Assembly (NCBI GenBank): GCA_947589005.1
Contig: CANPZO010000004.1
Coordinates: 21,330 to 85,329 of the forward strand
Direction of reading: 5' to 3'
Source of the DNA: an uncultured Clostridia bacterium
GTDB lineage: Bacteria; Bacillota; Clostridia; UMGS1883
DNA: 64,000 nt
The number at the start of each line of letters is the position of its first letter. The stretch's first letter is position 1. Positions 291 to 55,078 of this stretch are shown here, piece by piece. The notes under the pieces are model-generated. The model did not search any database, was not told the DNA's origin, and saw only the letters and a list, made by a program, of their open reading frames with translations. Made by a program: the position numbers and the translations under genes.

Positions 291-351
291 TTTTCGGCGG
301 CTTGAGGGCAAGCCGCCCTACACGGGATACGCGAGGCAGTAAAAATGAAAT

Positions 352-524
352 GTAGGGCGGGATGCCCTCATCCCGCCGTTTTGCGCGGGGGTCATTGGCC
401 GCCGGCCATCAAACGTTTACGTTGGCAATGATAAATAATATTACAATCAAATATATCTACAAATCCGCGTATTTATTACCGTAAACGTGTGAACGCGGGA
501 GCGCAATGCGCTCCCCTACAACGG
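352..524 (+). repeat. Copy A of a ~140-bp hairpin-ended repeat, with an extra 5' hairpin
   Basis: It has a ggccattggccgcc near-palindrome, an AT-rich core (ccatcaaacgttta..ttgacaatgataaat..attaccgtaaacgtgtg), and a terminal perfect hairpin gggagcgcaatgcgctccc. It matches copy B (588-724) with only a few mismatches. Confidence 0.7.
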
Positions 525-587
525 TAGTGGCCCAAATTTCGTTCATAAAGTAAAATACACACGGCGCACCACCGTAACAAAATGGCG

Positions 588-724
588 TAGGGGCGGCCAT
601 TGGCCGCCCGCCATCAAACGTTTATGTTGACAATGATAAATGATATTGCAATCAAATATATCTACAAACCCGCGTATTTATTACCGTAAACGTGTGTAAG
701 CGGGAGCGCAATGCGCTCCCCTAA
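588..724 (+). repeat. Copy B of the same ~140-bp repeat, in tandem with copy A
   Basis: Same architecture: tgtaggggcggccattggccgcc ... gcgggagcgcaatgcgctcccctaa. It lies directly downstream of copy A in the same orientation. Confidence 0.7.
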
Positions 725-763
725 GGAATTCGGCGAAGAAATCGACTTTATCGACAGACTGAG

Positions 764-793
764 AAAACCTCCCCAGAGGGGAGGTTTTCTGTT
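764..793 (-). terminator. Hairpin terminator, probably bidirectional, 3' of the CBM-repeat gene
   Basis: aaaacctcccc-aga-ggggaggtttt perfect stem. T-runs follow on both strands. It sits 18 nt past the stop at 811. Confidence 0.6.
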
Positions 794-810
794 TGCTGTG
801 TTATTGTGAT

Positions 811-3800
811 TTACTCGATAGGCTCGGCCTTAAAGTCGTATACATAGAACGGTACGCTTGAGCCGTTGTTTTCAACAAGGGCGAGAGTATCGATTGACGT
901 GGCGGGTTCACGGAAATGAACGCCGGTCGCCACTACATTGCCATTAACCGTAAGGTCATAGGTGTTCGCCTCAATATCGGCGTCAATGGAAATACTAACT
1001 CTTTCGCCAACATTATAGGTCGTCACCTGTTTTTTGCTTTCATTATCACGGGTGTGAAGTTTACCCTCGGCAAAGAGGATAACTATAGAGCCCTCAAAGT
1101 AGTTTCCACTGGAGGAATTTACCTTGCCGCTGTTGCCAAGAACAACGCCGCTGTCTCTTTCACCGTTGTCCACAAAATCAAAGGTGTAACGAACCTTGCC
1201 GGTCTGAGCGTCGATGGGGTGGAAAGCGTCAGCGTTCTGGCCCACGGACGACTCAAGAGGCGCGCCGGGCGCCTTGCCCTCGGCCGCGTTGGTGAGAGGA
1301 GCAAGGGTTCTAAGGCTGTCAATAACAAATACCTTCACGTCGGTGGTGCCCTCGACAAACGTGATGTCGATATCCGTGCTCGCGCCGGCCTCAAGCTCAA
1401 CGGTCTTGAGCTCGGCCTTTACGAGGTTGCCGTCAGCGTCGTACTGAGCCACAACAGCCTCGCCGTTAACCGCCGCGTTGGCCTTAACGGTGGCCTTATT
1501 GTCGGCTATGGTCACGGTGGAGGGAGCGGGAGCGAACACAAGGGTCGCCTCCACGGTGGAGCCCTCGACCACATTGACGGAAAGCGTGGACTTGGACGCT
1601 ACAAGCCTGTAAACTATGCCGTCCTCGCCGGTGATATCGGCCTTGTACTCGGCGGACACGCTATAGCTGTTGCCGGCGGTGAGCTCGTCAACCGTAACGG
1701 GAGCCTTAAGCTCGGTGCCGTTCTCGTCAACAAACTTGATTCGGACGCTGCCAGTGGTCTTGTCGCCCATCTCGGTAAGAACAAAGTCGTCGAAGCACCA
1801 GTTGCCGTCCAGCCACTTGCCGCCGATAAGCAGCGTCTTATAGGTATCATCGGGGGTAAAGGTGCGCTCTATGGTTACCCACCCGTCATCGGGACCGATG
1901 AGGAGTTCATTCATATCGGCTCCGCCGTTCGCTACCCTTTCGGGTATCATGGAACCGTATTTGCTGCGAAGGTCAACTATCGTGTCATGATTTGTATTGT
2001 TTTCGCCTATTTCAGCGTGGTCGTCCTTTACAAGAGGAGCCTCGATCCACGCCTCGGCCAGCTTATCGCCGCCCGCGCGCTTTACACGGAAGGAGAACTT
2101 ATACTGCTTGCCGGGGGTGAGATCAACAAATCTCTTGAGAGAGCCCGGCAGGGCAAGCTGCTGGCTGCTCTTGGACTGGATATAGTGGTTGCCGTCATCT
2201 TCCTCGACATAGGTAAAGTGGTCGGTGGTCATCTGGGCAATGCCGTTGGGATTGTCAGAGCCCGCGCCGGTGCCCCAGTCGGGAATATTCACGCCGTCAA
2301 GCGGGGTTTCAAAGTCGCCGTTGGTGATAAGATTGCTTGTCTCGGCGAAGTAGAGAGTTATCTTGTTCTGGTCGGGGTCAGCGTTTACGGTAAGCTCGGC
2401 GGGGTCGCTGCCGGTGTAAACGTACATCTTGCCGTCCTTGCTGATAGTGGCCTTAAGGGCGGCCGTTATCTCAAACGCCTTGCCGATTTCGCCGGAAACG
2501 GTTTCATCAGCTTTAAGAGTATTGCCGGAGGCGTCCTTAAAGCTTACGGTAACGTCGGCCACAGAAAGCTTTTCGAACGTAAGTGTTATGTCAACGGTGG
2601 AGTTGGCCACTACCTTAGCACTCTTAACGCTGGTCTCGTCAAATTTGTAGACAAAGCCGTCCTGTTCAAAATCAGCGGTCATCGTCTCGGGAACCGTATA
2701 GGTAGAATTAGCGAGAAGCCCTTCTATAATCTGGGGCTGCTTTATTTGATTGCCTTCCTTATCGACAAATTTCACCTGTACACTGCCGTACTCGACCTTG
2801 CCGACGGGACGGAGCACGAAGTTGGCAAATTTTATACCGTTTGTCCAGCTGCTCTGGATATAAAGAGTGTCTGTGCTGGCGGTAAATTTCATTTCCATAT
2901 GGTTCCATGTGCCGTTCGTCATGATTTCGCCAAACTGTATCAACTCATTGCCTGCAACCTCGCGAATACCGGCGTTGTTATTGAACGCATCAGAAACCTT
3001 GTTGTACTGATAGTTGCCCGACTCGGGCTTGCTACCGCCTACGTCGAAGGAGAACACATACTCCATGCCCACCTGAAGCCCTGTCCACGCCGTACCGATA
3101 GCGGTGTCGGAATCTCTGCCGCCGGTATTAATGGTAAGGGCGTTGGTGCCAAATTCGGGGTCAATGGCAATGGTACCGCCGGAAAGAGCCGTGCCCTTAC
3201 GGTTGGTCCAACCGGTATATCCGTTTGAGAAGTCGCCGTTGGTTATAATATTGCCGCGAACCGGCTCATAGTAAAGATTTATGACATTGTCGTTCTTGTT
3301 CTCGGATACGGTAATGGTGTATTCAGTATCCTCGTCAAGAGCATAGGTAACGCCGTCGGTCGTCATGTTAAGCTGGAGAGTAGAGCTGTCGGCTGTGTAC
3401 TCAAAGCCCACAAAACCGTTTGTCTTATCAACAACCGTGTCCTTCAGCTTCTTGCCGGACTCTTTGTCCAAAACATTGACAGTAACGTCAGCCTGAACAA
3501 GCTCCTTGAACACAAGGTTTATCACATTGGGTTCATTTTCCTTTACAAGAACATGATCCACACTGCTGGGCAGATATCTGTAGGTCTTTTTTCTGTTGCC
3601 GGTGCCGGTGGTTATATCCTCTTTCTCCGCATCGGAAACCTTGTACTCGAAGTTACCGTTCTGGTCCTTAACGGTCTTGGACTTCTTGAGTGTGTTGCCA
3701 TTCTCGTCAACATAGTTTATGGTGACGTCGGCATAGAAAGGTATGTCTACCTCCTCAAGAATGAAGTCGTCGAAAGCCCAGCGGCCGTCATTGTGGCCGG

Positions 3801-5535
3801 CCTCTTTCTTATTGAGCCATCTGGAGGTGATGAGCAGGGTATTGTAAGTCTTGTCGGGACTGAGTATGCCGCAGTCGATGGTACGCCAGTGATCCGAGTA
3901 CGTAAGCTCACCCTTATACGAGCCTCTGGGGAGCTCAAAGCCGCCGTAGGTGGCAACGGGGGCAAAGTTGCCGCCGCCGCTGTCCTCTACCATGCCGTCG
4001 TGGTTCGCAACGAGAACGGCCGCAGTATAGCTCTCCTCGCAGCTTCCGTCGCCGTTGTACCACATCTTGAAGGAAAGATGGTACATCTTTCCAGGCTCAA
4101 GGTCATAGTACATTCTGATTGAGCCGTCGCCGTAAGCGTCATGATGCAATTTGGAGAGGATATAGTGGTTGCCGTTGGACTCTAACATATAGTCAAAGCT
4201 ATCGGTAGTCATGGGAGCAAGGCTGCCCACTGTCCAGCCGGGGATGGACGTGCCATCGTGCACCTCAAAGGCGCCGTTGGGGATAAGGGTAGTGGTCAGG
4301 CCCTGACCGGTGTAAACGGTTACGTCCTGTTCTACCTCGATATCGTTATAGGTAACATGGGCGGTAAGGGTAACGGCGTCAACGCCCTCGCCGGGGTTGT
4401 AGCTGCCGTCGCCGCCAAGTACGTCGGGGTCGCTGCTCTCCCACTCAACGGTGCTGCCCGCGTAACCGGGAACGGTGGAGGGAAGCTCTACCTTGCTGTC
4501 CTTGGGATTTATAAACTTGGGAACATAGCCGTCAGCCTGAACAGCCGCTTTGATACCGGCCTGGAGACCCTCGATGGTAAGGTTGTACTTCAGGGTCGTG
4601 GACATGGTGCTGTAGGTGATGGTCACGCTAAGCTCGATGGGAGTATCGTCCTTAACCATGGTGACCTTACCGGTGTTAACGTCAAGTATGTCCGGATTGG
4701 AGCACACATAGGTCACACGGGCGTCGGCAACCTTTGCGGGCAGGGTCATGTCGCCCCTTACGATGTCGCCGTTCTTGTAAAGGAAGGTGGACTCCCACTT
4801 GGCGAGAGCGGCGGCGAACTTCTTCGACTCACCGGTCTGGCTTACCTCGCAAGCCTCGAAATCGTCGAGAGCAACCGCGTTGGCGTCCATATCAAAAACA
4901 TTTATTATCAGATAGTCGCCGCCTTTTACATCCGCAACGGCGTCTATATGCGTCCACTCGGAGGAAAGATTGACCTTTTTCGAAGAGGGCAGTATATCGT
5001 CGGCGCCCACAGGCCCTATGTAGTAGCTGAGGGAAGCGTCGTCGTCGACAGCCTTGGCCCAAAAGCTGGCATAGTAAGTCTTCTTGGAGCCGGAGGTGTT
5101 ATGTATATAATGCTTTATAGAGGTGGGGCCGTTCTCATCGTTGGTATACCTGGGTATGGTGGTGCCGGGTGAGAAAGCCTCGAAAGCGGGCGAAATGGCA
5201 TAGCCGCCCTCACGCCCGTCAACGCGCTCGAAAGCGGTGGCGCCAACGGCCGCCATGTTTTTGTCGGTGTTCATCTTGATAACGGCGTCAACACCGGGGT
5301 TACCGCCGCCGGGACCGGCATACGCGCCGGTGGTAAGGGCGTCTTCCCACGCGTCGGTCTCGAAAGCGCCGTCGGTTATAAAATCATCACTGGCGGCGGC
5401 GTAAGGCTGGTCGTCGCTGGTAACGATACCCTGACCCTCGCTAATGGCAGCCGAAGCGGTGAGCCCAAAGGCGGGCATCACAGTCGCTATCATGGCGAAT
5501 ACCGTCACGAGAGCCAGAAGTTTCCGAATTTTCAT
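811..5535 (-). CDS. Large secreted multidomain protein, 1574 aa, with at least three CBM4/9 (CenC-type) carbohydrate-binding-like modules and Ig-like spacer domains
   Basis: GGAGG sits 8 nt upstream of the ATG at 5535. The N-terminal signal peptide is MKIRKLLALVTVFAMIATVMPAFGLTASAA. The ITNGDFE/IPNGAFE...W motif recurs, typical of CBM_4_9 beta-sandwiches. No catalytic domain or sortase motif was recognised. Confidence 0.6.
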   Translation of the reverse strand: MKIRKLLALVTVFAMIATVMPAFGLTASAAISEGQGIVTSDDQPYAAASDDFITDGAFETDAWEDALTTGAYAGPGGGNPGVDAVIKMNTDKNMAAVGATAFERVDGREGGYAISPAFEAFSPGTTIPRYTNDENGPTSIKHYIHNTSGSKKTYYASFWAKAVDDDASLSYYIGPVGADDILPSSKKVNLSSEWTHIDAVADVKGGDYLIINVFDMDANAVALDDFEACEVSQTGESKKFAAALAKWESTFLYKNGDIVRGDMTLPAKVADARVTYVCSNPDILDVNTGKVTMVKDDTPIELSVTITYSTMSTTLKYNLTIEGLQAGIKAAVQADGYVPKFINPKDSKVELPSTVPGYAGSTVEWESSDPDVLGGDGSYNPGEGVDAVTLTAHVTYNDIEVEQDVTVYTGQGLTTTLIPNGAFEVHDGTSIPGWTVGSLAPMTTDSFDYMLESNGNHYILSKLHHDAYGDGSIRMYYDLEPGKMYHLSFKMWYNGDGSCEESYTAAVLVANHDGMVEDSGGGNFAPVATYGGFELPRGSYKGELTYSDHWRTIDCGILSPDKTYNTLLITSRWLNKKEAGHNDGRWAFDDFILEEVDIPFYADVTINYVDENGNTLKKSKTVKDQNGNFEYKVSDAEKEDITTGTGNRKKTYRYLPSSVDHVLVKENEPNVINLVFKELVQADVTVNVLDKESGKKLKDTVVDKTNGFVGFEYTADSSTLQLNMTTDGVTYALDEDTEYTITVSENKNDNVINLYYEPVRGNIITNGDFSNGYTGWTNRKGTALSGGTIAIDPEFGTNALTINTGGRDSDTAIGTAWTGLQVGMEYVFSFDVGGSKPESGNYQYNKVSDAFNNNAGIREVAGNELIQFGEIMTNGTWNHMEMKFTASTDTLYIQSSWTNGIKFANFVLRPVGKVEYGSVQVKFVDKEGNQIKQPQIIEGLLANSTYTVPETMTADFEQDGFVYKFDETSVKSAKVVANSTVDITLTFEKLSVADVTVSFKDASGNTLKADETVSGEIGKAFEITAALKATISKDGKMYVYTGSDPAELTVNADPDQNKITLYFAETSNLITNGDFETPLDGVNIPDWGTGAGSDNPNGIAQMTTDHFTYVEEDDGNHYIQSKSSQQLALPGSLKRFVDLTPGKQYKFSFRVKRAGGDKLAEAWIEAPLVKDDHAEIGENNTNHDTIVDLRSKYGSMIPERVANGGADMNELLIGPDDGWVTIERTFTPDDTYKTLLIGGKWLDGNWCFDDFVLTEMGDKTTGSVRIKFVDENGTELKAPVTVDELTAGNSYSVSAEYKADITGEDGIVYRLVASKSTLSVNVVEGSTVEATLVFAPAPSTVTIADNKATVKANAAVNGEAVVAQYDADGNLVKAELKTVELEAGASTDIDITFVEGTTDVKVFVIDSLRTLAPLTNAAEGKAPGAPLESSVGQNADAFHPIDAQTGKVRYTFDFVDNGERDSGVVLGNSGKVNSSSGNYFEGSIVILFAEGKLHTRDNESKKQVTTYNVGERVSISIDADIEANTYDLTVNGNVVATGVHFREPATSIDTLALVENNGSSVPFYVYDFKAEPIE

Positions 5536-5727
5536 CTGAAATTCCTCCTCGTAATGAATGTTTTGCTATTTTGTACAATCAAAAGCATAGATTGCACTCA
5601 TATTATTACACATATATACTATACCACATTCCGCCTTAAAAGTACAGCAATTTTCGCTCGTCAAAACACATAAATTTTATTTGTATTTTTTGTGCAAATT
5701 GTCAGTTTTGTTTTCTTTGACGTTAAA

Positions 5728-5768
5728 AAGGAAAGCCGAACCCAGTGCGGGGTTCGACTTTCCTTTCA
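5728..5768 (-). terminator. Rho-independent terminator upstream of the CBM-repeat gene, isolating it from the preceding gene
   Basis: ggaaagccgaaccc-agtgc-ggggttcgactttcc stem. On the minus strand it is followed by a TTTTT run. Confidence 0.5.
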
Positions 5769-5804
5769 GACCGTCGGTAAAGTCTTTCTTTGCCGGATAC
5801 CGTA

Positions 5805-5945
5805 TGGGAGCGCATCGCGCTCCCGCTTACACAGATTTACGGTGACAAATATACGATTTTATGAATATATTGGATTGTAATATCATTTATCATTGTCAAC
5901 GTATACGTTTGATGGCGGGCGGCCAATGGCCGCCCCTACAATATC
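5805..5945 (-). repeat. Copy C of the ~140-bp repeat, inverted relative to copies A and B
   Basis: Its reverse complement reads tgtaggggcggccattggccgcccgccatcaaacgtatacgttgacaatgataaatgatatt...gtgtaagcgggagcgcgatgcgctccc. It aligns to copies A and B with roughly 10% divergence. Confidence 0.7.
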
Positions 5946-5963: not shown

Positions 5964-6617
5964 TCAAAGACCGTCGTCGCTTAGCTGAACGTCGCCCTCG
6001 GAGCCGCCGCCATTGCCCGCGCCGCCGTCATTGCCGGAGGCGGAGGAACCACCGCGGTCGCCGCCGTCGCCGCCGGACGCGCTGCCGGAGCCTGAAGAGC
6101 CGGTGGTTTTGCCGCCTGAGCCGCTGTCGTCGTCATCATCGTCGTCGGAGCCGGTGTTCTTACTGCCGGAGCCAGTGGAGCCCGTACTGTTGCCGCCGGA
6201 GTTCGTAATCTTGTTGCCGGAGCTGACGCGGTCATAGTCGCCGTCATCGTCGTCGGAACCGGTGCTCTTACTGCCGGAGCCAGTGGAGCCCGTACCGCTG
6301 CCGCCGGTATTGCCCGAGGACGAGACCTTTCCGCCGTCCTCGTCCTTATCCTCGTCCCCGTTTTCCGTCTCCTCGTCCTCCTTGTCAAGCTCGTTGTCCG
6401 CGCCGGAGGCGGGAATGGGACTCAAATTTTGAGAGGCGCTGGGCAAATCGGCGCCGTATGTATCCTCGCCGGAGCTGGTCTGCTTTTCCCCATGCGAGAA
6501 AACGCTGAAAGATATGATAAACGCAAGCAGGAATACCAGCATAAACCCAAGCACGGTCAGCAGGATCACCAGGCCGGTACCCTTCTTCTTCTTTTTGCGT
6601 TTGCGGTTTGTAGCCAT
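5964..6617 (-). CDS. Membrane-anchored, intrinsically disordered G/S/D-rich protein
   Basis: It has a basic N-terminus (NRKRKKKKKG), one transmembrane helix, and a long acidic Gly/Ser/Asp low-complexity tail with internal repeats (GSTGSGSK.TGSDDDD). The start was chosen at the second Met. No homology call is possible. Confidence 0.45.
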   Translation of the reverse strand: MATNRKRKKKKKGTGLVILLTVLGFMLVFLLAFIISFSVFSHGEKQTSSGEDTYGADLPSASQNLSPIPASGADNELDKEDEETENGDEDKDEDGGKVSSSGNTGGSGTGSTGSGSKSTGSDDDDGDYDRVSSGNKITNSGGNSTGSTGSGSKNTGSDDDDDDDSGSGGKTTGSSGSGSASGGDGGDRGGSSASGNDGGAGNGGGSEGDVQLSDDGL

Positions 6618-10334: not shown

Positions 10335-11393
<1,059 letters not shown>

Positions 11394-11508
11394 TGGAAAT
11401 TCCTCCTCAGACGTATTTTTTCCGCACACGCTTTTAAATATATATTATTATACTATAAAAGTAAAATATATTCAATAGAAAATTTTAAATTTTCTATAAA
11501 TTTTTTTA

Positions 11509-12423
11509 TTATTTTTTTGGATTGTATGTGTGACGCTGCAAATCGACGGTACCGGTCAGGTTGCCGCCCAAATATTCTACGATTTTTTGGAAAAGCTTCA
11601 TTTTATATTCCAATTCTTCAACGGTGCCCAGACGCACGTCCAGCGTCCCGCGGTAAACCATGGTAACATTGTCATATACCGACATATCAACCTCGGTGAA
11701 GTCACGGTCCGCGCTGAGGAACTTGTCCATCAGCTCCATCAGTTTCGAGGCCCTTTTTTCGTCCTCGAACTTGACGGTATCTCCCACGGAGTATGTCATT
11801 TCTCCCATGCCGTACACCACGGTGATGGCGTTTTCGGAGGTCTGCGGCTCCGGGGCCTCGGCGGAGGGCTCCTCCGCGTCCCCGTCCGCGCCGCCGTCCT
11901 CATCTTCATTTTCCTCTCCGCCGCCGTCACCGGCGTCGGGAGGAGCTTCCTCCTTCGGCGAGGTTATCCCCAACGAAGCGGCCGATATTACCCCCGTCAC
12001 CTTACCGGCGGCGGTAATGCCCACCAGACTGCCGTTGTTCTCGACATACACCAAAGGCACGCTCTCGGTAACGGTTATTCTTATGGTGGTGGGCAGTCTG
12101 CGCTTTACCTTGACCGTATCTATGCCGCCGAGCCGACTTAGCCTGTCGCGCACGGACCGGAGGCTGACGCTGAAAATGTTGCTGCCGGGAGTTATGCCGC
12201 TGGCCTTCACTATTTCTTCGGTCGAGACGACGGTGTTGCCGTCCACGCTCACCGTTTTAACGTCAAATATGGGCGTAAGCAGCAGCGCCAGACAGCAGGC
12301 GGCTATTATACACAGCATGGATATGCCTATGGACGCTTTTTTGCCCAGTCTCGGCCCCCGCCGTTTTTTGCGCCGCGGCCTAAGTCTATCCTCGCCGTTT
12401 TTTTCAATTTTCACGGCCCTCAT
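11509..12423 (-). CDS. ftsQ: Cell division protein FtsQ/DivIB (POTRA domain)
   Basis: Basic N-terminus, one transmembrane helix, and a POTRA-like region (VKTVSVDGNTVVSTEEI...). Its position between murA and ftsZ fits the dcw cluster. The C-terminus is an acidic low-complexity insert. Confidence 0.75.
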   Translation of the reverse strand: MRAVKIEKNGEDRLRPRRKKRRGPRLGKKASIGISMLCIIAACCLALLLTPIFDVKTVSVDGNTVVSTEEIVKASGITPGSNIFSVSLRSVRDRLSRLGGIDTVKVKRRLPTTIRITVTESVPLVYVENNGSLVGITAAGKVTGVISAASLGITSPKEEAPPDAGDGGGEENEDEDGGADGDAEEPSAEAPEPQTSENAITVVYGMGEMTYSVGDTVKFEDEKRASKLMELMDKFLSADRDFTEVDMSVYDNVTMVYRGTLDVRLGTVEELEYKMKLFQKIVEYLGGNLTGTVDLQRHTYNPKK

Positions 12424-25804: not shown

Positions 25805-26643
25805 TTTGCCGCCTCCTCTTCTTCAAAATACATTTCAAGACCGTTGACTATGCCGTCAACTATTTTATCCTGGTATTCCTCCGTGGACAGCGCCGCGTCC
25901 TCCTCGGGATTGGTCATAAAGCCCATTTCCAGCAGCACTACCGGCACGGTGGACCAGTTGAAGCCTGTCATGTCGGAACGGGGCGAAAGGCCCCTGTTCT
26001 GCGCGCCGGTGCTAAGCGCCGCCTGCTCGAGTATGAGTTCTCCGGCCCTGTGGCTCTTATCCAGAAGCTCCCGGTCGGAAATGTGGTCGCCGGTGGGTAT
26101 GAGCATGGACATACCGCTGACGCCGGAATTTTCGCTGCCGTCGGCGTGGAGCCTGACCACCAGCGCGGCCCCGGCCTTGTTTGCGAATTCCGCACGGCCC
26201 ACGTTGCTCAGCTCGCACTCGGCGGTGCGGCGGGTCATCAGCACCTCGGCCCCCAGCTCCGCCAGTCTCTGCTCAAGCTTCAGTCCCACAATGAGATTGA
26301 GCTGTTCCTCGGTGTAGACCGCGCCGGAGGTTCCGCTGACAAAGGCGGGCTTGGTGACCGTGCTGCCGGGGGCCACGGGCTCCTGATAGTTGGAGCCGAA
26401 AACACAGTGGCCCGGGTCAATGCAGATGATTTTCCCGCTGAGCGCCGAGGTCTCCTCGGCCACGGGGACCTCCTCAGCGGGGAGCTCGTCCCCGGCGGCC
26501 CCGACGTCCTCAACGGGCGTTTCGGCAGAGGTATCCTCACGGCGTTCACCGGCGGAGTCGTCATTCTTCTGAGGGCCGCAGCCGCACATCATCAGCAGTG
26601 CGGCCACGAGCACCGAAATCAGTTTTTTGAGTGCTACTTCCAC
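25801..26643 (-). CDS. N-acetylmuramoyl-L-alanine amidase (Amidase_3, CwlD/AmiC type) lipoprotein
   Basis: Lipobox LMMCGC. Amidase_3 motifs are present (ICIDPGH, LHADGSENS.., metal-binding E/H). Confidence 0.75.
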   Translation of the reverse strand: MEVALKKLISVLVAALLMMCGCGPQKNDDSAGERREDTSAETPVEDVGAAGDELPAEEVPVAEETSALSGKIICIDPGHCVFGSNYQEPVAPGSTVTKPAFVSGTSGAVYTEEQLNLIVGLKLEQRLAELGAEVLMTRRTAECELSNVGRAEFANKAGAALVVRLHADGSENSGVSGMSMLIPTGDHISDRELLDKSHRAGELILEQAALSTGAQNRGLSPRSDMTGFNWSTVPVVLLEMGFMTNPEEDAALSTEEYQDKIVDGIVNGLEMYFEEEEAAK

Positions 26644-28478
26644 CCTTTATCCTCCTCATACGACATCAGGGTGTTCAGGTTGGCCCTCTCTATATCCGAA
26701 AACATCGACACAACCGTATTCTGGTCGGAATACATGGGAACGTACCAGGACTTCGAGCCGAAGTAGTTCTTGTACTCGTCCTTATTAAATATATAGCCGT
26801 GACGGGCGTAAAGCTCGTTGCGCATAAGGGCCACCGTGTCACGGTCAAGGCCGTCCAGATCCCCGTAGGTTATATACTGGGTGTCGCTGGGATAGAGATA
26901 GTCGCCGTCTCCGCTGTCATAATCATCATAACCGTAATCATCGTAATCATAATCATCGAAATCGTAGTCGCCGAAGTCACCGTAATAGTCATAGTAGTCA
27001 TCGTCGCCGCTGTTATTGCTGTTTACGGCCGCGTCTATTATTTCGCTCAGCTTGTTCTTGTCGATGTTCGGATTGCCCTGATTGCTCAAGGTGAGGTCAA
27101 AGCTCATCTTCTGGCCGCCCATGTCAACGGATAAGTTTATGCCGTCCAGATATCCGTCGTCCAAGGTCACGGAGCCGTTGACGCTTCCCTGGCTGTCGGC
27201 GTCAAGCTTAATGCTGAAGCTCTCAAGATATTTTTCGCTTCTTTCAATCGTGACGGAAATGCCGACGTTCTCTCCCTCGACTTCCATGGAGAATTCCAGT
27301 TCCATTGTTTTGGGAGTGTCGCCGTCATAGGTGATGGTGCAGACGGGGCCCTCGAGCTTGTACTCGTCTGCCATATCCGCCACCTGCTCCTTGATCTCGT
27401 CGAGATCCACTTCCTCTTCATTCATGCCGTCGAGGATACCCTGCGCCGTCTCCTGGAATTCGCCGGTGCCGTTTTCGGCGGCGTATTCAATGAACTCGAA
27501 GAACAGCTCCGCGCTGCCCGCAAGGTCCAGCGAATACTCGATGGAGCTGTCGGTCTTGCTTATTTTTACGGCCTTTTTGGCGGCATCCTCGTTGTCGCTG
27601 CTGAAATCCTCAAGGAGCTTTTGCAACTCCTTGAACTCCTCATTGTTCTCGACGGCGCTCATGGGGTCTCTGAGGTCGATGGGTATGCCGGCATTGTCAT
27701 AATACTGCTGGGCAAAGTCTATCAGCGCGTCCATGTCTATGCCGCCGTCTTTGATCAGATCTCTGATGTCTAAGCCGATTTCCCGCTCAAGCTCGTCCAA
27801 AGCATCGGTCATAAGCCCATATTGGCCGCCGTTGTAAGCGGCAAGGTCTCCGTCGTAAAGCGCCACTTCTCCGGTTTCGCCGCCGGCCGAGACCTTCACG
27901 TAAGCGGCGGAATCGTCAAAATCGTCGCCAAGGGAATAATAGCCGGATATCCCGACGGTTTCGCCGGAAACGGACACCTTCGCGTCAAAGTTGGCGCCGG
28001 ACATGGAGGGGCTCTTATCAAGATTTTCGAAGAAGCCGGCGATGGCCTCTATGTCCTCCGCCCAGGTGTCGCCGCCCTTATTGTTCGCTTTGCCGCCGAT
28101 GCTCTTTCTTTCGCCGTTCTCGTCGTGGAACAGGTTGAACACGTCCGCCGCCGGAACAAAATACATGGCGAGGGCGCTGCCGCCGCAGAGCACCAACAGT
28201 GCCGCCGCGACAATGGCCGCCACAATGGGCCAGCGTTTTTTGGCCTTGGGCGTAACCGGCGCCTCATAGGGCGCGGGCTCGGGGGTGGGAACATTCGCGG
28301 GGGCCTGCGGCTGATAGCCGGCGGCGTTCTGCGCGTTCCACTGCTGATTTTGCTGTAAATCCTGCTGAGCTTGGTTCTGCTGAGTCTGGGGCTGCTGCAC
28401 GGGCGAGCCGCATTCGTTGCAGAAATTTACTCCTTCGGGCAGCTGGGCCCCGCACTTTTTACAAAACATAATTTTCAA
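26634..28478 (-). CDS. Zinc-ribbon / TM / extracellular region / D-Y-rich linker / C-terminal YARHG domain protein
   Basis: N-terminus MFCKKCGAQLPEGVNFCNECG (CxxC-N9-CxxC), a Q-rich linker, one transmembrane helix, and an acidic Asp/Tyr run (DDYDYDDYGYDDYD). The C-terminus LYARHGYIF is the name-giving YARHG motif. Confidence 0.6.
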   Translation of the reverse strand: MKIMFCKKCGAQLPEGVNFCNECGSPVQQPQTQQNQAQQDLQQNQQWNAQNAAGYQPQAPANVPTPEPAPYEAPVTPKAKKRWPIVAAIVAAALLVLCGGSALAMYFVPAADVFNLFHDENGERKSIGGKANNKGGDTWAEDIEAIAGFFENLDKSPSMSGANFDAKVSVSGETVGISGYYSLGDDFDDSAAYVKVSAGGETGEVALYDGDLAAYNGGQYGLMTDALDELEREIGLDIRDLIKDGGIDMDALIDFAQQYYDNAGIPIDLRDPMSAVENNEEFKELQKLLEDFSSDNEDAAKKAVKISKTDSSIEYSLDLAGSAELFFEFIEYAAENGTGEFQETAQGILDGMNEEEVDLDEIKEQVADMADEYKLEGPVCTITYDGDTPKTMELEFSMEVEGENVGISVTIERSEKYLESFSIKLDADSQGSVNGSVTLDDGYLDGINLSVDMGGQKMSFDLTLSNQGNPNIDKNKLSEIIDAAVNSNNSGDDDYYDYYGDFGDYDFDDYDYDDYGYDDYDSGDGDYLYPSDTQYITYGDLDGLDRDTVALMRNELYARHGYIFNKDEYKNYFGSKSWYVPMYSDQNTVVSMFSDIERANLNTLMSYEEDKGWK

Positions 28479-28484
28479 CTCCTA

Positions 28485-29291
28485 TCAATAAACTTCTATT
28501 TCGCTGATGCACGTATCGCTCCACGTGTCGCCGGGATATACCTCGTCGACAGTTATCTTAATGTAGTTTGTCCTGACCGTCCTGCTGAATGACACGTCCT
28601 GATACAGGGCGTCCTCGCCCTCGCTGAACACGTCCGCCAGCTCGGCCTCGACCGAGCTGCCGTCAGAAAACGAAACCGTTATCCTCTTGGGTCGGCTGTT
28701 CGGATAATACTGCCACTTGCCGGTTTTGGCGTTGAACTTGTTGTAGCCGTTCAGTATCTTAAGGCCCGAAACGTACTGGTCGTCGGAGGCGGAAAGCATT
28801 ATCCACTCGCCCTCTCCTCCGCTGACGGCCCAGGCCGTATCCGTATACCCGTCCACAGCCAGCTTTGGGGAGTGGTCATAGCCCTCCTCGATGAGGGTGT
28901 CGGAGGCGCTCACCGAGCTGAACACCGGCAGGGCGTGGACTTCATCCTCCCGCGCCTCTTCCGGTTCCTCGGTTTTTTCCGGCTCTCCGGTCCTTTCGGA
29001 GGGTTCCGTCTCCTCCTCGGCGGGCGGTTCCTCCCCGTCGGCGGTAGCGGCCTCCTCCGTCTTTTCCTCCGTCTTTTCGGAGCCGTCCGACGTCAGCTTG
29101 ATGGCCGTCACCGTCACGGCCGCCGCTATCACCAGCAGCGACACCGTTATCAGCACCGCGGGCCAGACGCGCCTTTTACGGGGCGGGGAGGCCGGCACCG
29201 GCGCCCCGCCCGTAGGGGCGCCGCAGACGGTGCAGAACTGTGAGTCGTCCGGCAGACGCGCTCCGCAGCTTTCGCAAAACATAACCGTCAC
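28485..29291 (-). CDS. Zinc-ribbon / TM / discoidin (F5/8 type C)-like ectodomain protein
   Basis: N-terminus MFCESCGARLPDDSQFCTVCG, one transmembrane helix, and an E/T/P-rich linker. The C-terminal ~130 aa (AVDGYTDTAWAVSGGEGEWIMLS..) matches the discoidin domain pattern. Confidence 0.5.
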   Translation of the reverse strand: MTVMFCESCGARLPDDSQFCTVCGAPTGGAPVPASPPRKRRVWPAVLITVSLLVIAAAVTVTAIKLTSDGSEKTEEKTEEAATADGEEPPAEEETEPSERTGEPEKTEEPEEAREDEVHALPVFSSVSASDTLIEEGYDHSPKLAVDGYTDTAWAVSGGEGEWIMLSASDDQYVSGLKILNGYNKFNAKTGKWQYYPNSRPKRITVSFSDGSSVEAELADVFSEGEDALYQDVSFSRTVRTNYIKITVDEVYPGDTWSDTCISEIEVY

Positions 29292-29292
29292 C

Positions 29293-30099
29293 TCAGGCCG
29301 CTTTCCTGTTGTACCATTTCTTTTTGAAAACCGTTATAAGTATGAACACAAGTATGCTGAGACCTATGGCCACGGCAACCGATATTCCGTTGCCCACATA
29401 TATCTCGACACCCTTGGGCGCGTCCTCAAGGGCCGACTGCGCGGCGTTATTGATAAAGAGCATTACCGCGCCGAAAACCGCCGAGCACAGGAACGCCAGC
29501 GCCGAGCCTATCTGTCCGAGCACCGCGCCAAACCGCGGCGCGACATGGGTGAGGGCGGCAAAGAGGATTAGCAGGGCGATGACAAGAATAAGCACGCCCG
29601 AGAAAATCAGGAATATTATATCCATAACATTGAACAGGTTCTTTACGTCCTCGGCGTCCTCGGTCGATTCGGCGTCAATGGCGGCGGTGAAGAGGTCGGA
29701 GTTGTAAAGGTGCATAAATCTGGAAATGCCAAAGATGGAAACGGACACGCCGAGCTCAAACTCTTCCACATTGTTTTCCTCAAAGGCTTCCGTCGTTTTC
29801 TCGTCAAAGTCCATTTCGTCAATGGGGGCCTTCATTTTGAAAGAAAACCAGCCGAGCATAAGCGACACCGCCAAAAGCATGGCCAGCACGGTGCAAAGGG
29901 CCTTTGTTCCGCCGCCCTTTACCGGAGCGGCCGCCGGAGCCGGAGCGGGCTGGGGCTGAACGGGCTGAAGGGGCTGAGGCCGAACGTTCTGAACGGGCTG
30001 AGGCTGAGGAACGGTCTGTTCCTGCTGCACGACGGCTCCGCAGAGGTTGCAGAACCGGGCGTCGTCGGCTATTTCGCCGCCGCAGTTTTTACAAATCAT
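29293..30099 (-). CDS. Zinc-ribbon / polytopic membrane protein
   Basis: N-terminus ICKNCGGEIADDARFCNLCG, a Pro/Gln-rich linker, then 3-4 transmembrane helices. Confidence 0.5.
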   Translation of the reverse strand: MICKNCGGEIADDARFCNLCGAVVQQEQTVPQPQPVQNVRPQPLQPVQPQPAPAPAAAPVKGGGTKALCTVLAMLLAVSLMLGWFSFKMKAPIDEMDFDEKTTEAFEENNVEEFELGVSVSIFGISRFMHLYNSDLFTAAIDAESTEDAEDVKNLFNVMDIIFLIFSGVLILVIALLILFAALTHVAPRFGAVLGQIGSALAFLCSAVFGAVMLFINNAAQSALEDAPKGVEIYVGNGISVAVAIGLSILVFILITVFKKKWYNRKAA

Positions 30100-30133
30100 T
30101 TTCTATTCCTCCCTTAAAATTTATATTTGAAAA

Positions 30134-31303
30134 TCAATAATCCCAGTAGTCGTCGTAATAGTCGTAGTCGTCCTGCCCGTCCTCGCACTCGTCCAGGAAG
30201 TCCTTGATGTCGTCCTCGTCTATGTCGGGCTTGTTGTAATTTTCTATTTCAAGAGAAACCTTTCCCTCGTCGTAGCTCATCTCCAGCGAGGCCAAACGTC
30301 CGCCCTTGGTGCTGTACTCGACGTCGATGACTATCTCGCCCTTTCCTTCCCTGAGCGCGGACTTGACTTCCTTAAGGTTGTCATCAAACACGTTTTCCTC
30401 TAAGAACTTGGCCGCTTCCTTCACCTTTTTGTTGCCGCTGTCCTTGCAGTCCTCAATATAGTCGATGAAGGCCAGTCCCAGCTTCGCCACGTCCACGGAA
30501 TAGCTGTACTTTCCGCCGGACTTTTCATAATCGTCGATGAAGCTCTTCCAAACCTTGGACTTGTTGCACTCTTTGAAAATGAAATCATTGATCATCTTCG
30601 CCATGCCCTCGACCATATCCTCGTCGTAGTCCTCGGGCTTCGCGTCCTCGGCGAGTTCCTTTATGTACTTTTCGTTGAGCTTTCCGTTCTTTACAAGCTT
30701 GTTGATGTCCACCTTGATGCCGAGTTCCTCAAGGGACCCGTTTAGCTCATCCTCAACTTCGTCAAGGAAGTCCTTGTAAAATCCATAATATTCCCCGTCC
30801 TCTGTCATACCGAGGTCGCCGTCGGCAAAGGCCACGCGAACGGTATCGCCGTCCATTCTACCCTCAAGCTCCATCAAGCTGTGCTCGGTGTCCTTGCCCA
30901 GCTTGAAGCTGAGGTCTACGTCGAAATTATCATACCCCGCATCCAACGAAGCACTGATGTCGGCGCCCTTCATTCCCTTAAGGTTGGCGGCGGCCTTGAT
31001 GGTCCTGGCCAGGGGATTTGAGCGGGTGAACAGCACGGCCAGCACGACGGCAATCACCGCCAAAACTCCGACCGCGGCCAGTATCGGGGTTTTGCTCTTC
31101 TTATTTGCCGGCGGCATATAGACCCCGTCGGCGGAATACTGTGCGGCCGATTGAGCGTTTACCTGCTGATAGTTCGACTGTTGAGCATTCGACTGTTGAG
31201 CGTTCGACTGCTGAGCGTTCCCCGCCCCTGTCGAATCCCAGCCGCATTTGGGGCAGAACCTCGACCCCTCATTGATGGCCGTCCCGCAGTTTTTACAAAA
31301 CAT
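30134..31303 (-). CDS. Zinc-ribbon / TM / acidic ectodomain protein, paralogous to the middle of the YARHG gene
   Basis: N-terminus MFCKNCGTAINEGSRFCPKCG, a (QQSNA)n linker, and one transmembrane helix. The K/E/D-rich ectodomain ends in DDYDYYDDYWDY. Confidence 0.5.
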   Translation of the reverse strand: MFCKNCGTAINEGSRFCPKCGWDSTGAGNAQQSNAQQSNAQQSNYQQVNAQSAAQYSADGVYMPPANKKSKTPILAAVGVLAVIAVVLAVLFTRSNPLARTIKAAANLKGMKGADISASLDAGYDNFDVDLSFKLGKDTEHSLMELEGRMDGDTVRVAFADGDLGMTEDGEYYGFYKDFLDEVEDELNGSLEELGIKVDINKLVKNGKLNEKYIKELAEDAKPEDYDEDMVEGMAKMINDFIFKECNKSKVWKSFIDDYEKSGGKYSYSVDVAKLGLAFIDYIEDCKDSGNKKVKEAAKFLEENVFDDNLKEVKSALREGKGEIVIDVEYSTKGGRLASLEMSYDEGKVSLEIENYNKPDIDEDDIKDFLDECEDGQDDYDYYDDYWDY

Positions 31304-41620: not shown

Positions 41621-41699
41621 CATTAATTCATAGTTTTGATTATATCACAGGGTTTTCATTACATAAATTTGGCTTAAATAAAGCCTTTATGCTAAAATG

Positions 41700-41832
41700 G
41701 GGGCCCCCGCAAAACGGCGAAGCCGATTTTGTGGGGAAAAGGAGTCACAGCGAGGTAAGCCGAGTTTCGATTTTAAATCGAAACTTGCGATACCGAGCTT
41801 GTGGCGACGCAGGTCTGCGCCATTTTTTTACG
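41700..41832 (+). ncRNA. Candidate small RNA or transcribed element with its own promoter-like sequence and terminator
   Basis: An extended -10 (TGCTAAAAT) lies at about 41686-41694. A perfect palindrome gtttcgatttt/aaatcgaaac is at 41776-41796. A GC hairpin plus a T8 run is at 41803-41830. There is no plus-strand ORF downstream. Confidence 0.3.
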
Positions 41833-41841
41833 GCCCCTGTT

Positions 41842-41994
41842 TTACCAAACGGCCTCATCACTGGCGGCGGGATCGGTCACGACCTTTTCATTGTCTATGC
41901 CGGGTATCTCCCCGCTGGCGGTGATGTCGTCCATGACCGAATTAACGGGAGAAAGGTCGCGGACGTCTATTTCAGGCTCGAAAAACTTTTTCAT
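41842..41994 (-). CDS. Unannotated 50-aa acidic peptide gene immediately downstream of the giant protein gene
   Basis: GGAGGA sits 7 nt upstream of the ATG. It encodes MKKFFEPEIDVRDLSPVNSVMDDITASGEIPGIDNEKVVTDPAASDEAVW and starts 19 nt after the upstream stop. It is below the ORF-track cutoff. Confidence 0.4.
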   Translation of the reverse strand: MKKFFEPEIDVRDLSPVNSVMDDITASGEIPGIDNEKVVTDPAASDEAVW

Positions 41995-42012
41995 CGTTAT
42001 TTCCTCCTTTTA

Positions 42013-45000
42013 TCAGAGTTCGGGAACAAAGCCCATATCGGCGGTTATATCGCCGGTAACTCCGCCGTCCGTAATCTCGGTATCCGCAAACTCTATCTCT
42101 ACCGCGTCCAGAGACAGCGGCGCGGCGAGCTCGATAATGGCGGACTCGGCATCGGATATTCCGAGGTCGGCTGCCTTCTTTATCATCTTGCCGTCGGCGT
42201 CATAGAGCTTGGCGGAGGCTTCCTTAAGGCCGGGGAATTTGGCCTCGGAGTCGTCCTTGCGGTTCTTCTTTACAAAGGCGATGACGCTGTTGGCGGCGGC
42301 CAGACGCTCGGGCAGGATGCTTGCGCCCTTGGCGTTCACGATGCTGTCGATGAGCACGTCGTACAGGCTGGCCTTAACGGTCTCGCCGTAAATCTTCTGG
42401 CCGTTCACAACGATATAGGGCTGAGCGGTGTAGGTGCGGGCGCTGTTGGCATTGGAGATGCCGGTTATCGACAGGGCGAAGGTGTCGGCCACCTTGTCGA
42501 GCTTAACCTCGGCGGTCGCGCCGGCCTTGGTGTAGGTGCCGTCGTCCGCCTTGGCGTTCGCGGCGTATACAAAGCCTACCTCGCTTACGGAGTCAAGGGT
42601 GCCGGTAACGTTGGCGGTGAAGGTTATGCCCAGACCAACGGTGCCGTCCTCGCCCTTGGTGATGCGCAGAGCGGCCTCGGCGCTGACCTTGGCGGTGGTG
42701 ATGGCCTTTATCTCGTCCTCGGTGAGGGCGGTGTTAAAGAACATGAAGTTGTCGATGGTGCCGTTGAAGTCCTGATTGTTACCCCTCTGGCCGCTGTCGG
42801 CGGACCACTGGGTGCGGCCGATGTAGTTGCGGTCGGTGGAGCCGGAAATCTCATAGGGCTCGTGAACAACATTATTGCCCTGAGCGACGGTCGCGATGCC
42901 GTCGGCGGTGACGGTGTAAACCTTGGTCTCCTTAGTCTTTGCGCTGTAGGTCGTCACCAGCCAGTACTCGCCGGTGGCAAAGGGCTTGCCGGCAACCATC
43001 TGGGTGCTTTCGTTGTTGTACTTAAGACCGGCCTGATACTGATTGGCGCCGCCAACCGTGTTCAGTCTGGTGAATACGCTGTTACCGGTATTCTTGCCGA
43101 AGTCGTAAAGTCTGGGATCATTTCTGTCGGTACCGCCGGAAATCTGCTCCACAACGGAGTAGCTGCGGACGTCCTTCATGAAGTCATAGGGTACGTTCAG
43201 ATAGCCGTTAGTATCCCAACCGCTCGCAGTGTTCGCGGTGAGGTCCAGCTTGCCGTTGTCGAACTTGGCGGCCGTGCCCTTAACCTCGGCGTCATAGCCG
43301 TTGGCGGACAGGTCGGGAACAACATCGCCGGTCACGTCGTTGAAGTCATAGTGGAGAACCATGTTCTCTTTCGTTACGTCCACCTTGGCGGGCACGGTAA
43401 CGGTGAAGTCCTTAGTCTGGTCGCCGGCGGCGGCGGTGAGAACTACCTGATGCTCCTCGCCGTCACGGGTAACAATGCCGTCGTCAATGATGACGTTGGC
43501 ATCATCGCTGGTCCAAGTGATGGTCTTTCCGTCGGCGGTTGTCTTGGGAAGAACAAGGTCGGCAGCCGTCTCGGTGGGTATCTCTATGGATTCAAGAGTG
43601 TTCACGCTGTCGGGGTCGAACTCTTCCATCGCCGCGCGCACCTCGGCCTGAGTGAGGGCCTTGTCAGTGCTGCGGAAATTGGTAATGATACCGTCGATGC
43701 CGCCTATCTTTGCGGTGGCGTCAAGGGTCAGGCCGTCAACGCCCTGAATGGTGGCGTCGATGAGACCGTTCACATATGTAACGACCTCGCTGCCATCATA
43801 GGTGACGGTGTAGTTTATCCAGCCCATGGGCGAAACGCCCTTATCACCATTGGTGCCGCTGAGAGACAGGTACCAGTCGGCGTCGCTGAACAGGTTTTGG
43901 CTCTTTTCGGTCTTACCGGCGGCGGTTATCTTCGGAGCGACAGCCGCGTAATCATACTTATCATATTTGCCGGTAGCAAGGTCATTCGTTATCTTTTCAA
44001 GCTCGACCTTAAGATCGCCGCTCTCAAAGAGTACTCCGCCCTTGGAAATGTCGTCCTGGAGCAGGTTCATGGAAACGGTGAACTCCTCGCCGGAGGTCAC
44101 ATCAACGGTATTGTCCGCGTCGGCGGCGTATACCTTCGAATTTACATCGCCCAGATTGTTCGTCACGTCAAGGGGCTTGAGCTCGGTGTCGGTCATCATC
44201 TGAACGGGATAACCCTTGCCGCCGTTCTGACTGCTGTGTATCCAGTAATAGTAATCGCCGTTAAACCAGGTCAGGCGCAGGTCGCCCTCCTCGCTGCCGT
44301 TGGCAACATAGGGACGGGCGTTGTCCTTGAGAGAATTTTCGGTAACGGCCTCGGTGGTTACATTGCCGTAGTCGTCGCTTACGGTGTACTTGACTATCTC
44401 AAATACCCGGCCGAATACGCCGTCCACGGGAACGGAGGCGTAAATCACATGGGGATCGGCCTTGTCGATGGACATACCGCCGCTGTAGCATCTTTCAACA
44501 CCGTTATTCGCGTTTTCATGGAAGGTGGTGTTGAATTCGGGGTCGGGAAGGTCGGTCTTTTTCCACTCCGTACCGTCAAAGTGGGCCAGCCAGTAGTCGT
44601 GCTTCGTCTTGCTGGAATCGATCTTAACCATGGCGATGACGGGATTGCCGTCATCGGCAAGGGCTATTTCCCAAACCCAGCCGCGGACGTTGTCCTCACG
44701 GTAAACTACCTGCGTTTCGCTCTCGGTCTCGCTTCCGCTGACAACATATCTGTCTTTGGTAAGATCCTGAAGCAGTTTGCCGGCGGCGTCATGGAGAGTA
44801 AGGTCGCTTATGTCAATGTAATTGCAGTAAATGGGATTGGTGGGCACGTTGTCGGGATGGGTGCCGGTATAGGTAAGCCATATCTTATTCTCGCCGTCGG
44901 AGGCGTACTTGGCATAAGGACGGCAGCCGCTGCTCTGTATATTCGACCTTACAATCTGCTGAGGTCCCCATACAAAGCTGAGGGTGTAGTCGTTTGCTTC

Positions 45001-46497: not shown

Positions 46498-46621
46498 GTA
46501 TCTCTCTCCTTTTTTAATAGTTATTTTCATTATATACTAATTGCACATATTTGTCAAGGGGAAAAGAGGGTGTTTTTTCGCAATATGCACATTTCAAACG
46601 AAATGTCGCAGCGTCCCCGCG

Positions 46622-50013: not shown

Positions 50014-50080
50014 GGCGTCTGCTTTTATTATAGCACGCCATGGCCCGATTCACAAGAACGATTTTTTGTGTTTTAAATGG

Positions 50081-50275
50081 TCATATGCCCGTGTTTTGGT
50101 CAATCCACTTGTCGAGCTTGACCTTGTCGGCAAACATACGCCCTCCCACTCGGCAGGCGTAAGGACAGTTGGGCGCCTTGAGAAGACGGCGACCAACTGT
50201 CTCGCCGATGCTCATGTATTCACAATAGTCCTTGACAGTCAAAAGTCTTTTGCCAATGGCCTGTTCGGTTTTCAT
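50081..50275 (-). CDS. xis: Excisionase / AlpA-type HTH DNA-binding protein
   Basis: A 64-aa protein (LLTVKDYCEYMSIGETVGRRLL) typical of Xis/MerR-like HTH, directly upstream of int. Confidence 0.6.
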   Translation of the reverse strand: MKTEQAIGKRLLTVKDYCEYMSIGETVGRRLLKAPNCPYACRVGGRMFADKVKLDKWIDQNTGI

Positions 50276-50847: not shown

Positions 50848-51089
50848 GTTATATCCTCCTGTACCGGTAAATTGCCAATATGTACCGTCGCTCCAAGGCG
50901 AAGAGGGAGCGGCTCGGTTTTCGCGGCGGCGTCATAGCGTCTTTGGCGACGGGATATGCCCGTCGGGACAATGTGGCCGCCCCCGTCAAGCGTCCATGGG
51001 TTGCCCGGAATGACCGGTACATTTTTCGCCGCAAAAATCTCTCTGCTTGTCAAAATATCATCTCCGTTTCAGTGCTTATCTTATATGTC

Positions 51090-54115: not shown

Positions 54116-54118
54116 GAT

Positions 54119-54794: not shown

Positions 54795-55078
54795 TTATAG
54801 CACTCGTGGTCAAGAACGCATGTCCATTTGAGATATAGACCGCCACCGTTATTGCAGCGACCAGTTGGCCATTTTATAGGACATGAAATGCAGCAAATGT
54901 TTTTGTTGTAGCCAGCATACTGACAGCAGTAGCAGTAGACGAGCGGCCTTTCATTTCTGGGAATACCCATGGCGTCAAAGTACATTGCTTTTCCTACCGC
55001 GATTTTCCGTCGCTCCGTCTCATCCGCTATCCACCGCCACATTTTGCGATGGGCAGCTATTGCATCTTGCTTAGTCAT
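54728..55078 (-). CDS. Cys-rich small phage protein, tandem paralog 1
   Basis: MTKQ..IAA..MW.WIADE...ARQIADLPEREDV frame with a CYCCQ..CCISC cluster. Paralogous to the adjacent gene. Confidence 0.4.
   Translation of the reverse strand: MTKQDAIAAHRKMWRWIADETERRKIAVGKAMYFDAMGIPRNERPLVYCYCCQYAGYNKNICCISCPIKWPTGRCNNGGGLYLKWTCVLDHECYNWRKAADIARQIADLPEREDVR

Follow-up and report, generated by a model that had tools for sequence, protein, structure and literature searches.

The 64-kb stretch of contig CANPZO010000004.1 analysed here, from an uncultured Clostridia bacterium (the whole stretch is called the window, and L-numbered loci are comparison contigs or assemblies), carries three copies, A, B and C, of a small hairpin-ended repeat around a gene for a 1574-aa secreted protein, hereafter the giant gene. 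The repeats belong to a rare family, members of which occupy differing sites in the three genomes where it was found. On balance, they are best read as a small non-autonomous family of doublets of repetitive extragenic palindromic (REP) sequences, comparable to REPINs (REP doublets forming hairpins) or bacterial interspersed mosaic elements (BIMEs), the position on both sides of the gene being incidental. The unit behaves as a REP doublet would, and it probably belongs to that class, though membership is not claimed. The original prediction, made from the sequence, had offered three readings: a family resembling REPs or miniature inverted-repeat transposable elements (MITEs), the boundaries of a mobilisable or invertible cassette of ∼5.5 kb, or structured RNA elements. 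The prediction was partly right, in that the first of these readings stands up and the second fails.

Repeat finding and blastn recovered the three copies roughly where they had first been placed. Copies A (380-521) and B (585-724) are on the plus strand and copy C (5766-5941) is on the minus strand, inverted relative to A and B. A and B are direct repeats (387-518 against 592-723, 92% identity over 132 nt), B and C are inverted repeats (587-762 against 5939-5766, 85% over 176 nt), and A and C are 83% identical over 133 nt. The divergence of copy C, originally put at about 10%, was measured as 15–17%. Copy C comprises a unit, 5941-5802, and an extension, 5801-5766, which it shares with B. The homology between B and C runs on past the 3′ hairpin by ∼38 nt and, at both copies, stops where a terminator hairpin starts (762-790 and 5737-5756). 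Beside B, this 38-nt extension lies at 725-762 on the plus strand, contains a small hairpin and stops at the terminator; it is found with B and C only. Using blastn, homology was found among these three copies with no fourth in the window, the other 58 kb being empty. Patterns for the 3′ hairpin and for 35 nt of the core matched only within A, B and C, where shuffled versions of the window gave expectations of 0.01 and 0.00 matches. A pattern for the 5′ palindrome, allowing up to 3 mismatches, gave one additional and unrelated match at 8064 (0.73 expected).

The full unit reads GTAGGGG-CGGCC-ATT-GGCCG-CCC, CGCCATCAAACGTTTAYG, an AT-rich core, CGTAAACGTGTG, and GGG-AGCGC-AAT-GCGCT-CCCCTAC. The core is ∼95 nt long with complementary ends, and the second hairpin is inverted and footed by GTAG. 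GTAG, or a one-base variant of it, is present on the outer foot of every hairpin, the variants being TTAG at the 3′ end of B and GTAT at the 3′ end of C. The latter foot is mutated in the window strain and intact in the second strain, L033. Copy B consists of GTAGGGG-CGGCC-ATT-GGCCG-CCC, CGCCATCAAACGTTTATG, the AT-rich core, CGTAAACGTGTG, and GGGAGCGC-AAT-GCGCTCCC-CTAA. A 5′ near-palindrome had been assigned to every unit; that of A is degenerate (GGGGGTCATTGGCCGCC). Copy A has this degenerate 5′ hairpin at 387-403, then the AT-rich core, an intact 3′ hairpin at 497-515 and a CTAC foot at 516-519. The two ends of the unit are inverted repeats of each other, ∼37 nt long and ∼70% alike. Their stems differ through compensatory changes and their loop is identical.

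A second type of hairpin, GTAGGGCGG-NNNN-CCCT-NNNN-CCGCC, was found as two solo hairpins. R1 (296-321, minus strand) reads GTAGGGCGG-CTTG-CCCT-CAAG-CCGCC, with a 9-bp stem and no mismatches, and R2 (352-377, plus strand) reads GTAGGGCGG-GATG-CCCT-CATC-CCGCC and abuts the degenerate 5′ end of A. Both are footed by GTAG. They share a loop, are two compensatory stem pairs apart and are arranged tail-to-tail, with the GTAG ends pointing inward, foot to foot, across a 30-nt spacer. Copies A, B and C are head-to-head doublets. R2 had been described as an additional hairpin of copy A; the hairpin is real but it is a separate solo element, and its partner R1 had been missed. Perfect GTAGGG-footed hairpins number six in the window and are confined to 296-724 and 5802-5939.

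The conservation of the fold was examined in an alignment of 13 type-I hairpins from four sources, namely the window, the second strain L033 and two other species. Pairing was retained by 99% of the stem cells, against 43–51% for structures slid by 1–3 columns. Changes on both sides were seen in four of the eight stem pairs, though these events are few and some may share ancestry; the two stem types in this alignment may go back to one old event. The single-sided changes number five, all of them G·U-type wobbles on the GTAG-tagged strand, and one cell is unpaired. By our reading, the wobble in the 3′ hairpin of copy B in L033 sits on the reverse strand of the unit. The wobbles would thus track the GTAG-tagged strand of whichever hairpin they lie in, rather than one transcribed strand.

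Related elements were found at unrelated intergenic sites in two other genomes. The first, L010, is a rabbit-gut Clostridia metagenome-assembled genome (MAG; CANRJP01) with two half-elements, each consisting of a 5′ hairpin, CGCCATCAAACGTTTACGG and a related core. These flank mscL and the gene for a 1196-aa protein ending in repeats that resemble S-layer homology (SLH) domains, an assignment made by our own reading. This protein is not homologous to the giant protein, and a cargo common to L010 and the window was dismissed. One half-element is enclosed by a perfect 27-nt inverted GTAG pair, GTAGGGCGCGACGACCTCGGTGCGCCG. The arms of this pair, at 6115-6141 and 6341-6367 of L010, are head-to-head with their GTAG ends outward and 199 nt apart, and they constitute a third type of GTAG hairpin. 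A pyrimidine-rich motif, TTATTCCTCATTCCTAATTCCTAATT, is also present three times downstream of the L010 elements (∼1440-1500, 6165-6200 and, on the minus strand, 6040-6090), preceded in two of the three cases by ACGACAAATAAATT...AATTTATT. The second genome, L030 (GCA_947624455.1), has an element beyond its homologue of the giant gene, described below, and a further piece upstream of addA. The hairpin of the latter, GTAGGGGAGCGCATTGCGCTCCC, is a 23-mer identical to the 3′ hairpin of the window and joins sequence that in the window follows the 5′ hairpin. In both genomes the GTAG foot is again found at a GC-rich stem-loop.

Across these species the hairpin 23-mers show few differences or none, and it is the cores that diverge. 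Given that AddA is only 62–66% identical among the window, L030 and L031 (66% for the window against L030), near-identical ends joined to fast-diverging cores suggest either that selection maintains the ends, perhaps because an enzyme recognises them, or that the element has moved between species that share a gut. Blastn searches of plasmids and phages gave no match. The proposal of a MITE/REP-like family is borne out by the non-homologous intergenic sites in L010 and L030, by hairpin ends that are far better conserved than the core, and by the lack of copy C from the same spacer in three related species.

The above features match those of REP sequences carrying GTAG and of their doublets, REPINs and BIMEs. 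Canonical REPs are defined by a 5′ GT[AG]G at the foot of the hairpin (PMC6006769). GTAG REPs form head-to-head dimers with conserved spacers of 20–100 nt, often with complementary ends, and heterodimers with unlike stems, tail-to-tail dimers and clusters are typical (PMC3733652). The REP-associated tyrosine transposase (RAYT) cleaves single-stranded REP DNA at the GTAG motif (PMC3733652, citing work in E. coli), and group 1 RAYTs are present in Clostridia (PMC5581495). In the window, selection would act on the structure that each hairpin forms as single-stranded DNA, on the strand that carries its GTAG. Recognition would be by a structure-specific single-stranded DNA enzyme, for example an HUH tyrosine transposase of the RAYT/TnpA-REP type encoded elsewhere in the genome, for which GTAGGGGCGGCCATTGGCCGCCC is a candidate single-stranded hairpin substrate. 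The present-day effect of the repeats would more likely be passive, as extra hairpins beside terminators, than that of a switch.

Several observations weigh against the REP-doublet interpretation. REPs are marked by a high copy number and by a cognate RAYT, a single-copy gene flanked by the same hairpins. There is only one cluster of repeats in the window, with all copies within 6 kb, and the annotated genes of the window do not include a RAYT or Y1 transposase. The family is rare, as an exact-pattern scan of 185,579 species genomes returned only one other contig, L010. Two scans of metagenome contigs gave either nothing or two chance matches within coding sequence, and one scan of viral contigs gave 12 chance matches, none of them with the hairpin. 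One survey of GTAG REPs did not report them in Firmicutes (PMC3733652). Copies C and B share 38 nt outside the unit, which a local inverted duplication fits better than clean transposition. Finally, every end reads G-TA/GGGG...CCCC/TA-C, which is compatible with a MITE of the DDE type that duplicates TA.

An ordinary DDE-type MITE, inserted independently at each site and bounded by 37-nt terminal inverted repeats GGGG...ACGTTTAYG, is an unlikely explanation, less likely than a REP doublet. Its transposase would be IS630/Tc1-like, duplicating TA, or Tn3-like, with a 38-bp GGGG inverted repeat. The small, non-coding unit agrees with a MITE, as do its two ends, inverted repeats ∼70% alike over 37 nt, and the TA that flanks every end. 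Their length and GGGG start also resemble the inverted repeats of the Tn3 family. However, the ends differ exactly by compensatory stem changes, which points to selection on the fold and not on a double-stranded binding sequence. A G precedes the TA in 11 of 12 hairpins, the solo ones included, indicating that GTAG is part of the element and not of the target. The existence of solo hairpins and of a tail-to-tail pair also argues against a DDE-type MITE, as does the lack of such a transposase in the window. Target-site duplications, raised in the original prediction, were not found at the repeat: the ends show no direct repeat of 2–9 bp save for an ambiguous TA inside the conserved GTAG/CTAC foot. 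In particular there is no 5-bp duplication (for B, GCGTA against TAAGG), and Tn3-like inverted repeats were dropped for this reason. Integron attC sites were dropped as there are no attC core sites and no integrase. A 29-aa peptide frame running through the core, conserved at first sight, was rejected too; it has no ribosome-binding site, and by our count B and C differ in it by ∼8 non-synonymous and 2 synonymous changes.

The location of the repeats around the giant gene was examined in MAGs of other Oscillospiraceae species, L030, L031 (GCA_947626145.1) and L034 (GCA_947630525.1). The giant protein has homologues of 44–50% identity in all three, and the gene order AddA, small protein, giant gene is kept, giving four species with the window. 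The site of copy C is empty in all three, where the spacer of the giant gene has the same conserved promoter/leader block of ∼110 nt. Copy C (and, compared with two of the three, the terminator as well) has therefore been added in the lineage of the window. The promoter/leader block (GACAATTTGCACAAAAAATACA...TTGACGAGCGAAAATTGCTGTACTTTTAAGG...TGGTATAGTATATATGT) lies at 5560-5700 in the window (minus strand), 5830-5960 in L030, 5880-6000 in L031 and 5060-5190 in L034; it is non-coding and, judged by eye, ∼85–90% conserved in the four species, unusually strong conservation if it is a promoter or leader. Synteny from the deacetylase side of the repeats was uninformative because the neighbours of the relatives differ there.

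These comparisons bear on the possibility that the inverted B/C pair delimits a mobilisable or invertible 5.4-kb cassette carrying an adhesin gene. It would be attractive for such a cassette that inverted repeats of 176 nt, 85% alike, enclose the gene, its promoter and both terminators, and that B and C have recombined, as judged from a mosaic copy B in L033 described below. However, the giant gene follows AddA and the small protein in L030, L031 and L034, where the flanking pair is absent. All assemblies of the species that span a junction, from four samples (L001, L002/L005, L003 and L006), match the window, so that a single orientation was seen where inversion had been proposed. An inversion would leave expression unswitched, because the segment includes the promoter. 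No flanking duplication was found at 587/5939. No transposase, Y1/RAYT or invertase was found among the scanned genes of the window, and the closest integrase, the only one in the window (48796-50013), is in a prophage-like or integrative and conjugative element (ICE)-like region 43 kb from the repeats. The GC content at third codon positions (GC3) of the giant gene, 0.66, is somewhat low compared with 0.69–0.81 for core genes, as might suit a cassette, but it overlaps that of ftsQ (0.685), and a foreign origin of the gene was rejected as the value is only slightly under that of core genes.

One further observation in favour of a cassette comes from sample ERZ27059539, where two SPAdes contigs (the end of L007 and the start of L003) overlap by exactly 55 nt in copy C, window 5806-5860. 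This implies a branch in the assembly graph and hence either another C-like copy or a structural variant. Logan and SPAdes contigs often stop at the hairpins, which was judged to be mostly an assembly effect, the 55-nt overlap excepted. Taken together, the cassette is very improbable and this reading is largely refuted. The giant gene was part of the ancestral locus, to which the repeats were added afterwards. This cautions against taking inverted repeats that flank a large adhesin gene for a mobile or phase-variable cassette.

The same comparison allows a history of the three copies to be proposed. In L030, an element lies just beyond the terminator of the giant gene, in the position and orientation of B. 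Its 5′ hairpin region matches that of window B at 23 of 25 positions, the core at only 37 of 83 aligned positions, and the L030 core has a 27-nt insertion. No element was found at the B site in L031, L034 or L035. In L030, the 1 kb of non-coding DNA past the giant gene (10776-11824) is crowded with unrelated palindromes and short repeats, among them two occurrences of CAACGCCGAAG(T/G)CGTTTAC. Since an element is present at the orthologous position in L030, where AddA is only 66% identical, B would be an old copy just beyond the terminator of the giant gene. Copy C would be a later, lineage-specific copy in the spacer upstream of the giant gene. The 38-nt extension, including CGACAGAC beside the terminator, is common to C and B, and the L030 element is without it. 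The extension may have been copied from B together with its flank, as a local inverted duplication, or it may be part of the version of the element found in this lineage.

Copies A and B appear to have exchanged sequence. Strain SRR11585417 (L033), whose giant protein is 95% identical, has a copy B with a mosaic 3′ half, C-like in the inner part and B-like in the extension. The inner part of B is A-like in the window strain. This difference between the strains indicates that the copies are homogenised by gene conversion. Copy A would then be a neighbour of B, altered by sequence exchange with it and by the arrival of a solo hairpin at its own 5′ foot. With R2 taken out, the 5′ flanks of A and B look alike, which hints that the solo hairpin was inserted at the GTAG foot of A.

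The repeats could instead be a functional structured intergenic element, such as a 3′ untranslated region, a small RNA or a protein-binding site, spread by local duplication and retained for a stabilising or insulating effect on transcripts around surface-protein genes with strong expression. This we consider improbable, although several results agree with it. The units fold well as RNA (z = −5.3, −5.7 and −4.3), a terminator follows both B and C in the same sense, and a promoter-like site lies immediately 5′ of C. The hairpin of the extension differs between B and C by changes of G·U to A-U and G·U to G-C. An element has been kept at the B site in L030, and both L010 loci, which are outside the synteny of this gene family, adjoin a gene for a secreted protein of more than 1100 aa. 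Against this, no family in Rfam 15 reached its gathering score; the best match scored 28.6 bits against a required 54 and was on the terminator, and wide and narrow permissive searches gave only sub-threshold matches, mostly on the terminator. Transcription of the giant gene would end at its terminator, before copy B is reached. The forward strand of the L030 element is antisense to both neighbouring genes, and the orientation of the unit relative to transcription varies between loci. The core diverges quickly, and the wobbles follow the GTAG strand of each hairpin, as in the 3′ hairpin of L033 B. The element is missing from the homologous loci L031, L034 and L035. The window has a second giant secreted-protein gene (42013-46530, minus strand), at which blastn found no such repeats. 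The original suggestion of structured RNA elements has therefore gained no positive support from the Rfam search, the orientations or the wobbles.

The genes and terminators around the repeats are as follows. To the left is a dlt-like operon (AMP-binding protein, acetyltransferase, carrier protein, MBOAT and polysaccharide deacetylase) ending in an intrinsic terminator at 250-279 on the plus strand, with a 12-bp stem followed by a T run, which is outside the repeat. The organism belongs to Oscillospiraceae, and among named relatives Ca. Faecousia is the closest (56% identity for the deacetylase). A bidirectional intrinsic terminator, assigned from the sequence and from terminator prediction, is at 762-790 at the 3′ end of the giant gene. 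The giant gene itself (811-5535, minus strand) is enclosed by the repeats and not part of them, and its product has MucBP, CBM_4_9 and aBig_2 domains. The terminator hairpin at 5737-5756, between copy C and the promoter of the giant gene, is followed by TTTTT on the minus strand. To the right of copy C are the genes for a 217-aa Pro-rich protein and AddA and then the dcw cell-division cluster. The 217-aa protein is of low complexity (noted at 6048-6307), rich in Pro, Ala, Thr and Arg at the DNA level, with tandem repeats of 71–108 nt that are 92% alike.

Other features of the window were noted further from the repeats. Four successive minus-strand genes at 26634-31303 each start with a zinc-ribbon domain, which in two cases is accompanied by YARHG or NADase_transloc/F5_F8 type C domains. 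At 41689-46530, two giant open reading frames (ORFs) overlap on opposite strands. Of the two, the one likely to be a genuine gene is the minus-strand ORF (42013-46530, 1505 aa), in which BNR_4, aBig_2 and Laminin_G_3 domains were found. The plus-strand ORF (1597 aa) has no Pfam match and an odd GC profile, with 0.73 at first codon positions and a GC3 of 0.55. The prophage- or ICE-like region extends over 48796-64000 and includes the Tn916-type tyrosine integrase (48796-50013), a dUTPase, a C-5 cytosine methylase (51683-54115) split by a LAGLIDADG-containing intein, and, at 61007-63985, a protein that resembles Pol III alpha and has Hint/intein domains.

If the repeats are indeed REP doublets, then REP/REPIN biology would reach the gut Clostridia, where it has hardly been described, and the locus would be a small, low-copy example that allows old, new and converted copies to be distinguished. 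More tentatively, if several Oscillospiraceae genera retain such doublets through a conserved RAYT-like enzyme, no REPIN-type doublet would have been described in a Firmicute before these. Such an enzyme would explain why 23-nt GTAG hairpins are identical despite an AddA identity of 66%, and its activity, or recombination between copies, would then help to reshape the flanks of surface-protein genes.

Four known systems can be compared with the window repeats. Composite units flanked by MITEs, for example integron mobilisation units, are mobile in their entirety and have a duplication on their flanks. Like them, the window has two inverted copies of a small repeat flanking a gene; unlike them, it shows no duplication, and the gene has stayed at its ancestral site. 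Palindrome-associated transposable elements (PATEs), like the other IS200/IS605 derivatives, are short and do not code for protein; they end in hairpins, lack a terminal duplication and are read by a Y1 HUH enzyme as single-stranded DNA. The window repeats are also small, non-coding, hairpin-ended and free of terminal duplication. However, IS200/IS605 elements have both hairpins read on one strand and ends that are not inverted repeats of each other, whereas the ends of the window unit are symmetric. The BIME-1 or RIP elements of E. coli have two converging REPs around a binding site for integration host factor (IHF). The window unit similarly has two inverted REP hairpins about an AT-rich centre that could, by analogy, bind a nucleoid protein. 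There is no sequence similarity, and Firmicutes are not known to have IHF.

The closest resemblance is to the GTAG REP heterodimers, REPINs and BIMEs of E. coli, Pseudomonas and Stenotrophomonas (PMC3733652, PMC3116915, PMC2817692). The window repeats differ from these in their host, an Oscillospiraceae Firmicute from a phylum not listed for GTAG REPs (PMC3733652), in their AT-rich spacer, which at ∼95 nt is at the long end of the usual range, in a copy number that seems low, with one cluster in 64 kb and no RAYT seen, and in the sequence outside the unit that is carried by copy C. In other respects the agreement is close. GTAG is at the unpaired foot of a GC-rich hairpin and the stems vary by compensatory changes. 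The doublets are inverted, with GTAG outward and a conserved spacer with complementary ends, and tail-to-tail pairs, solo units and local clusters accompany them. As in REPINs and BIMEs, the elements are intergenic, lie near terminators, make no target duplication and can persist at orthologous sites.

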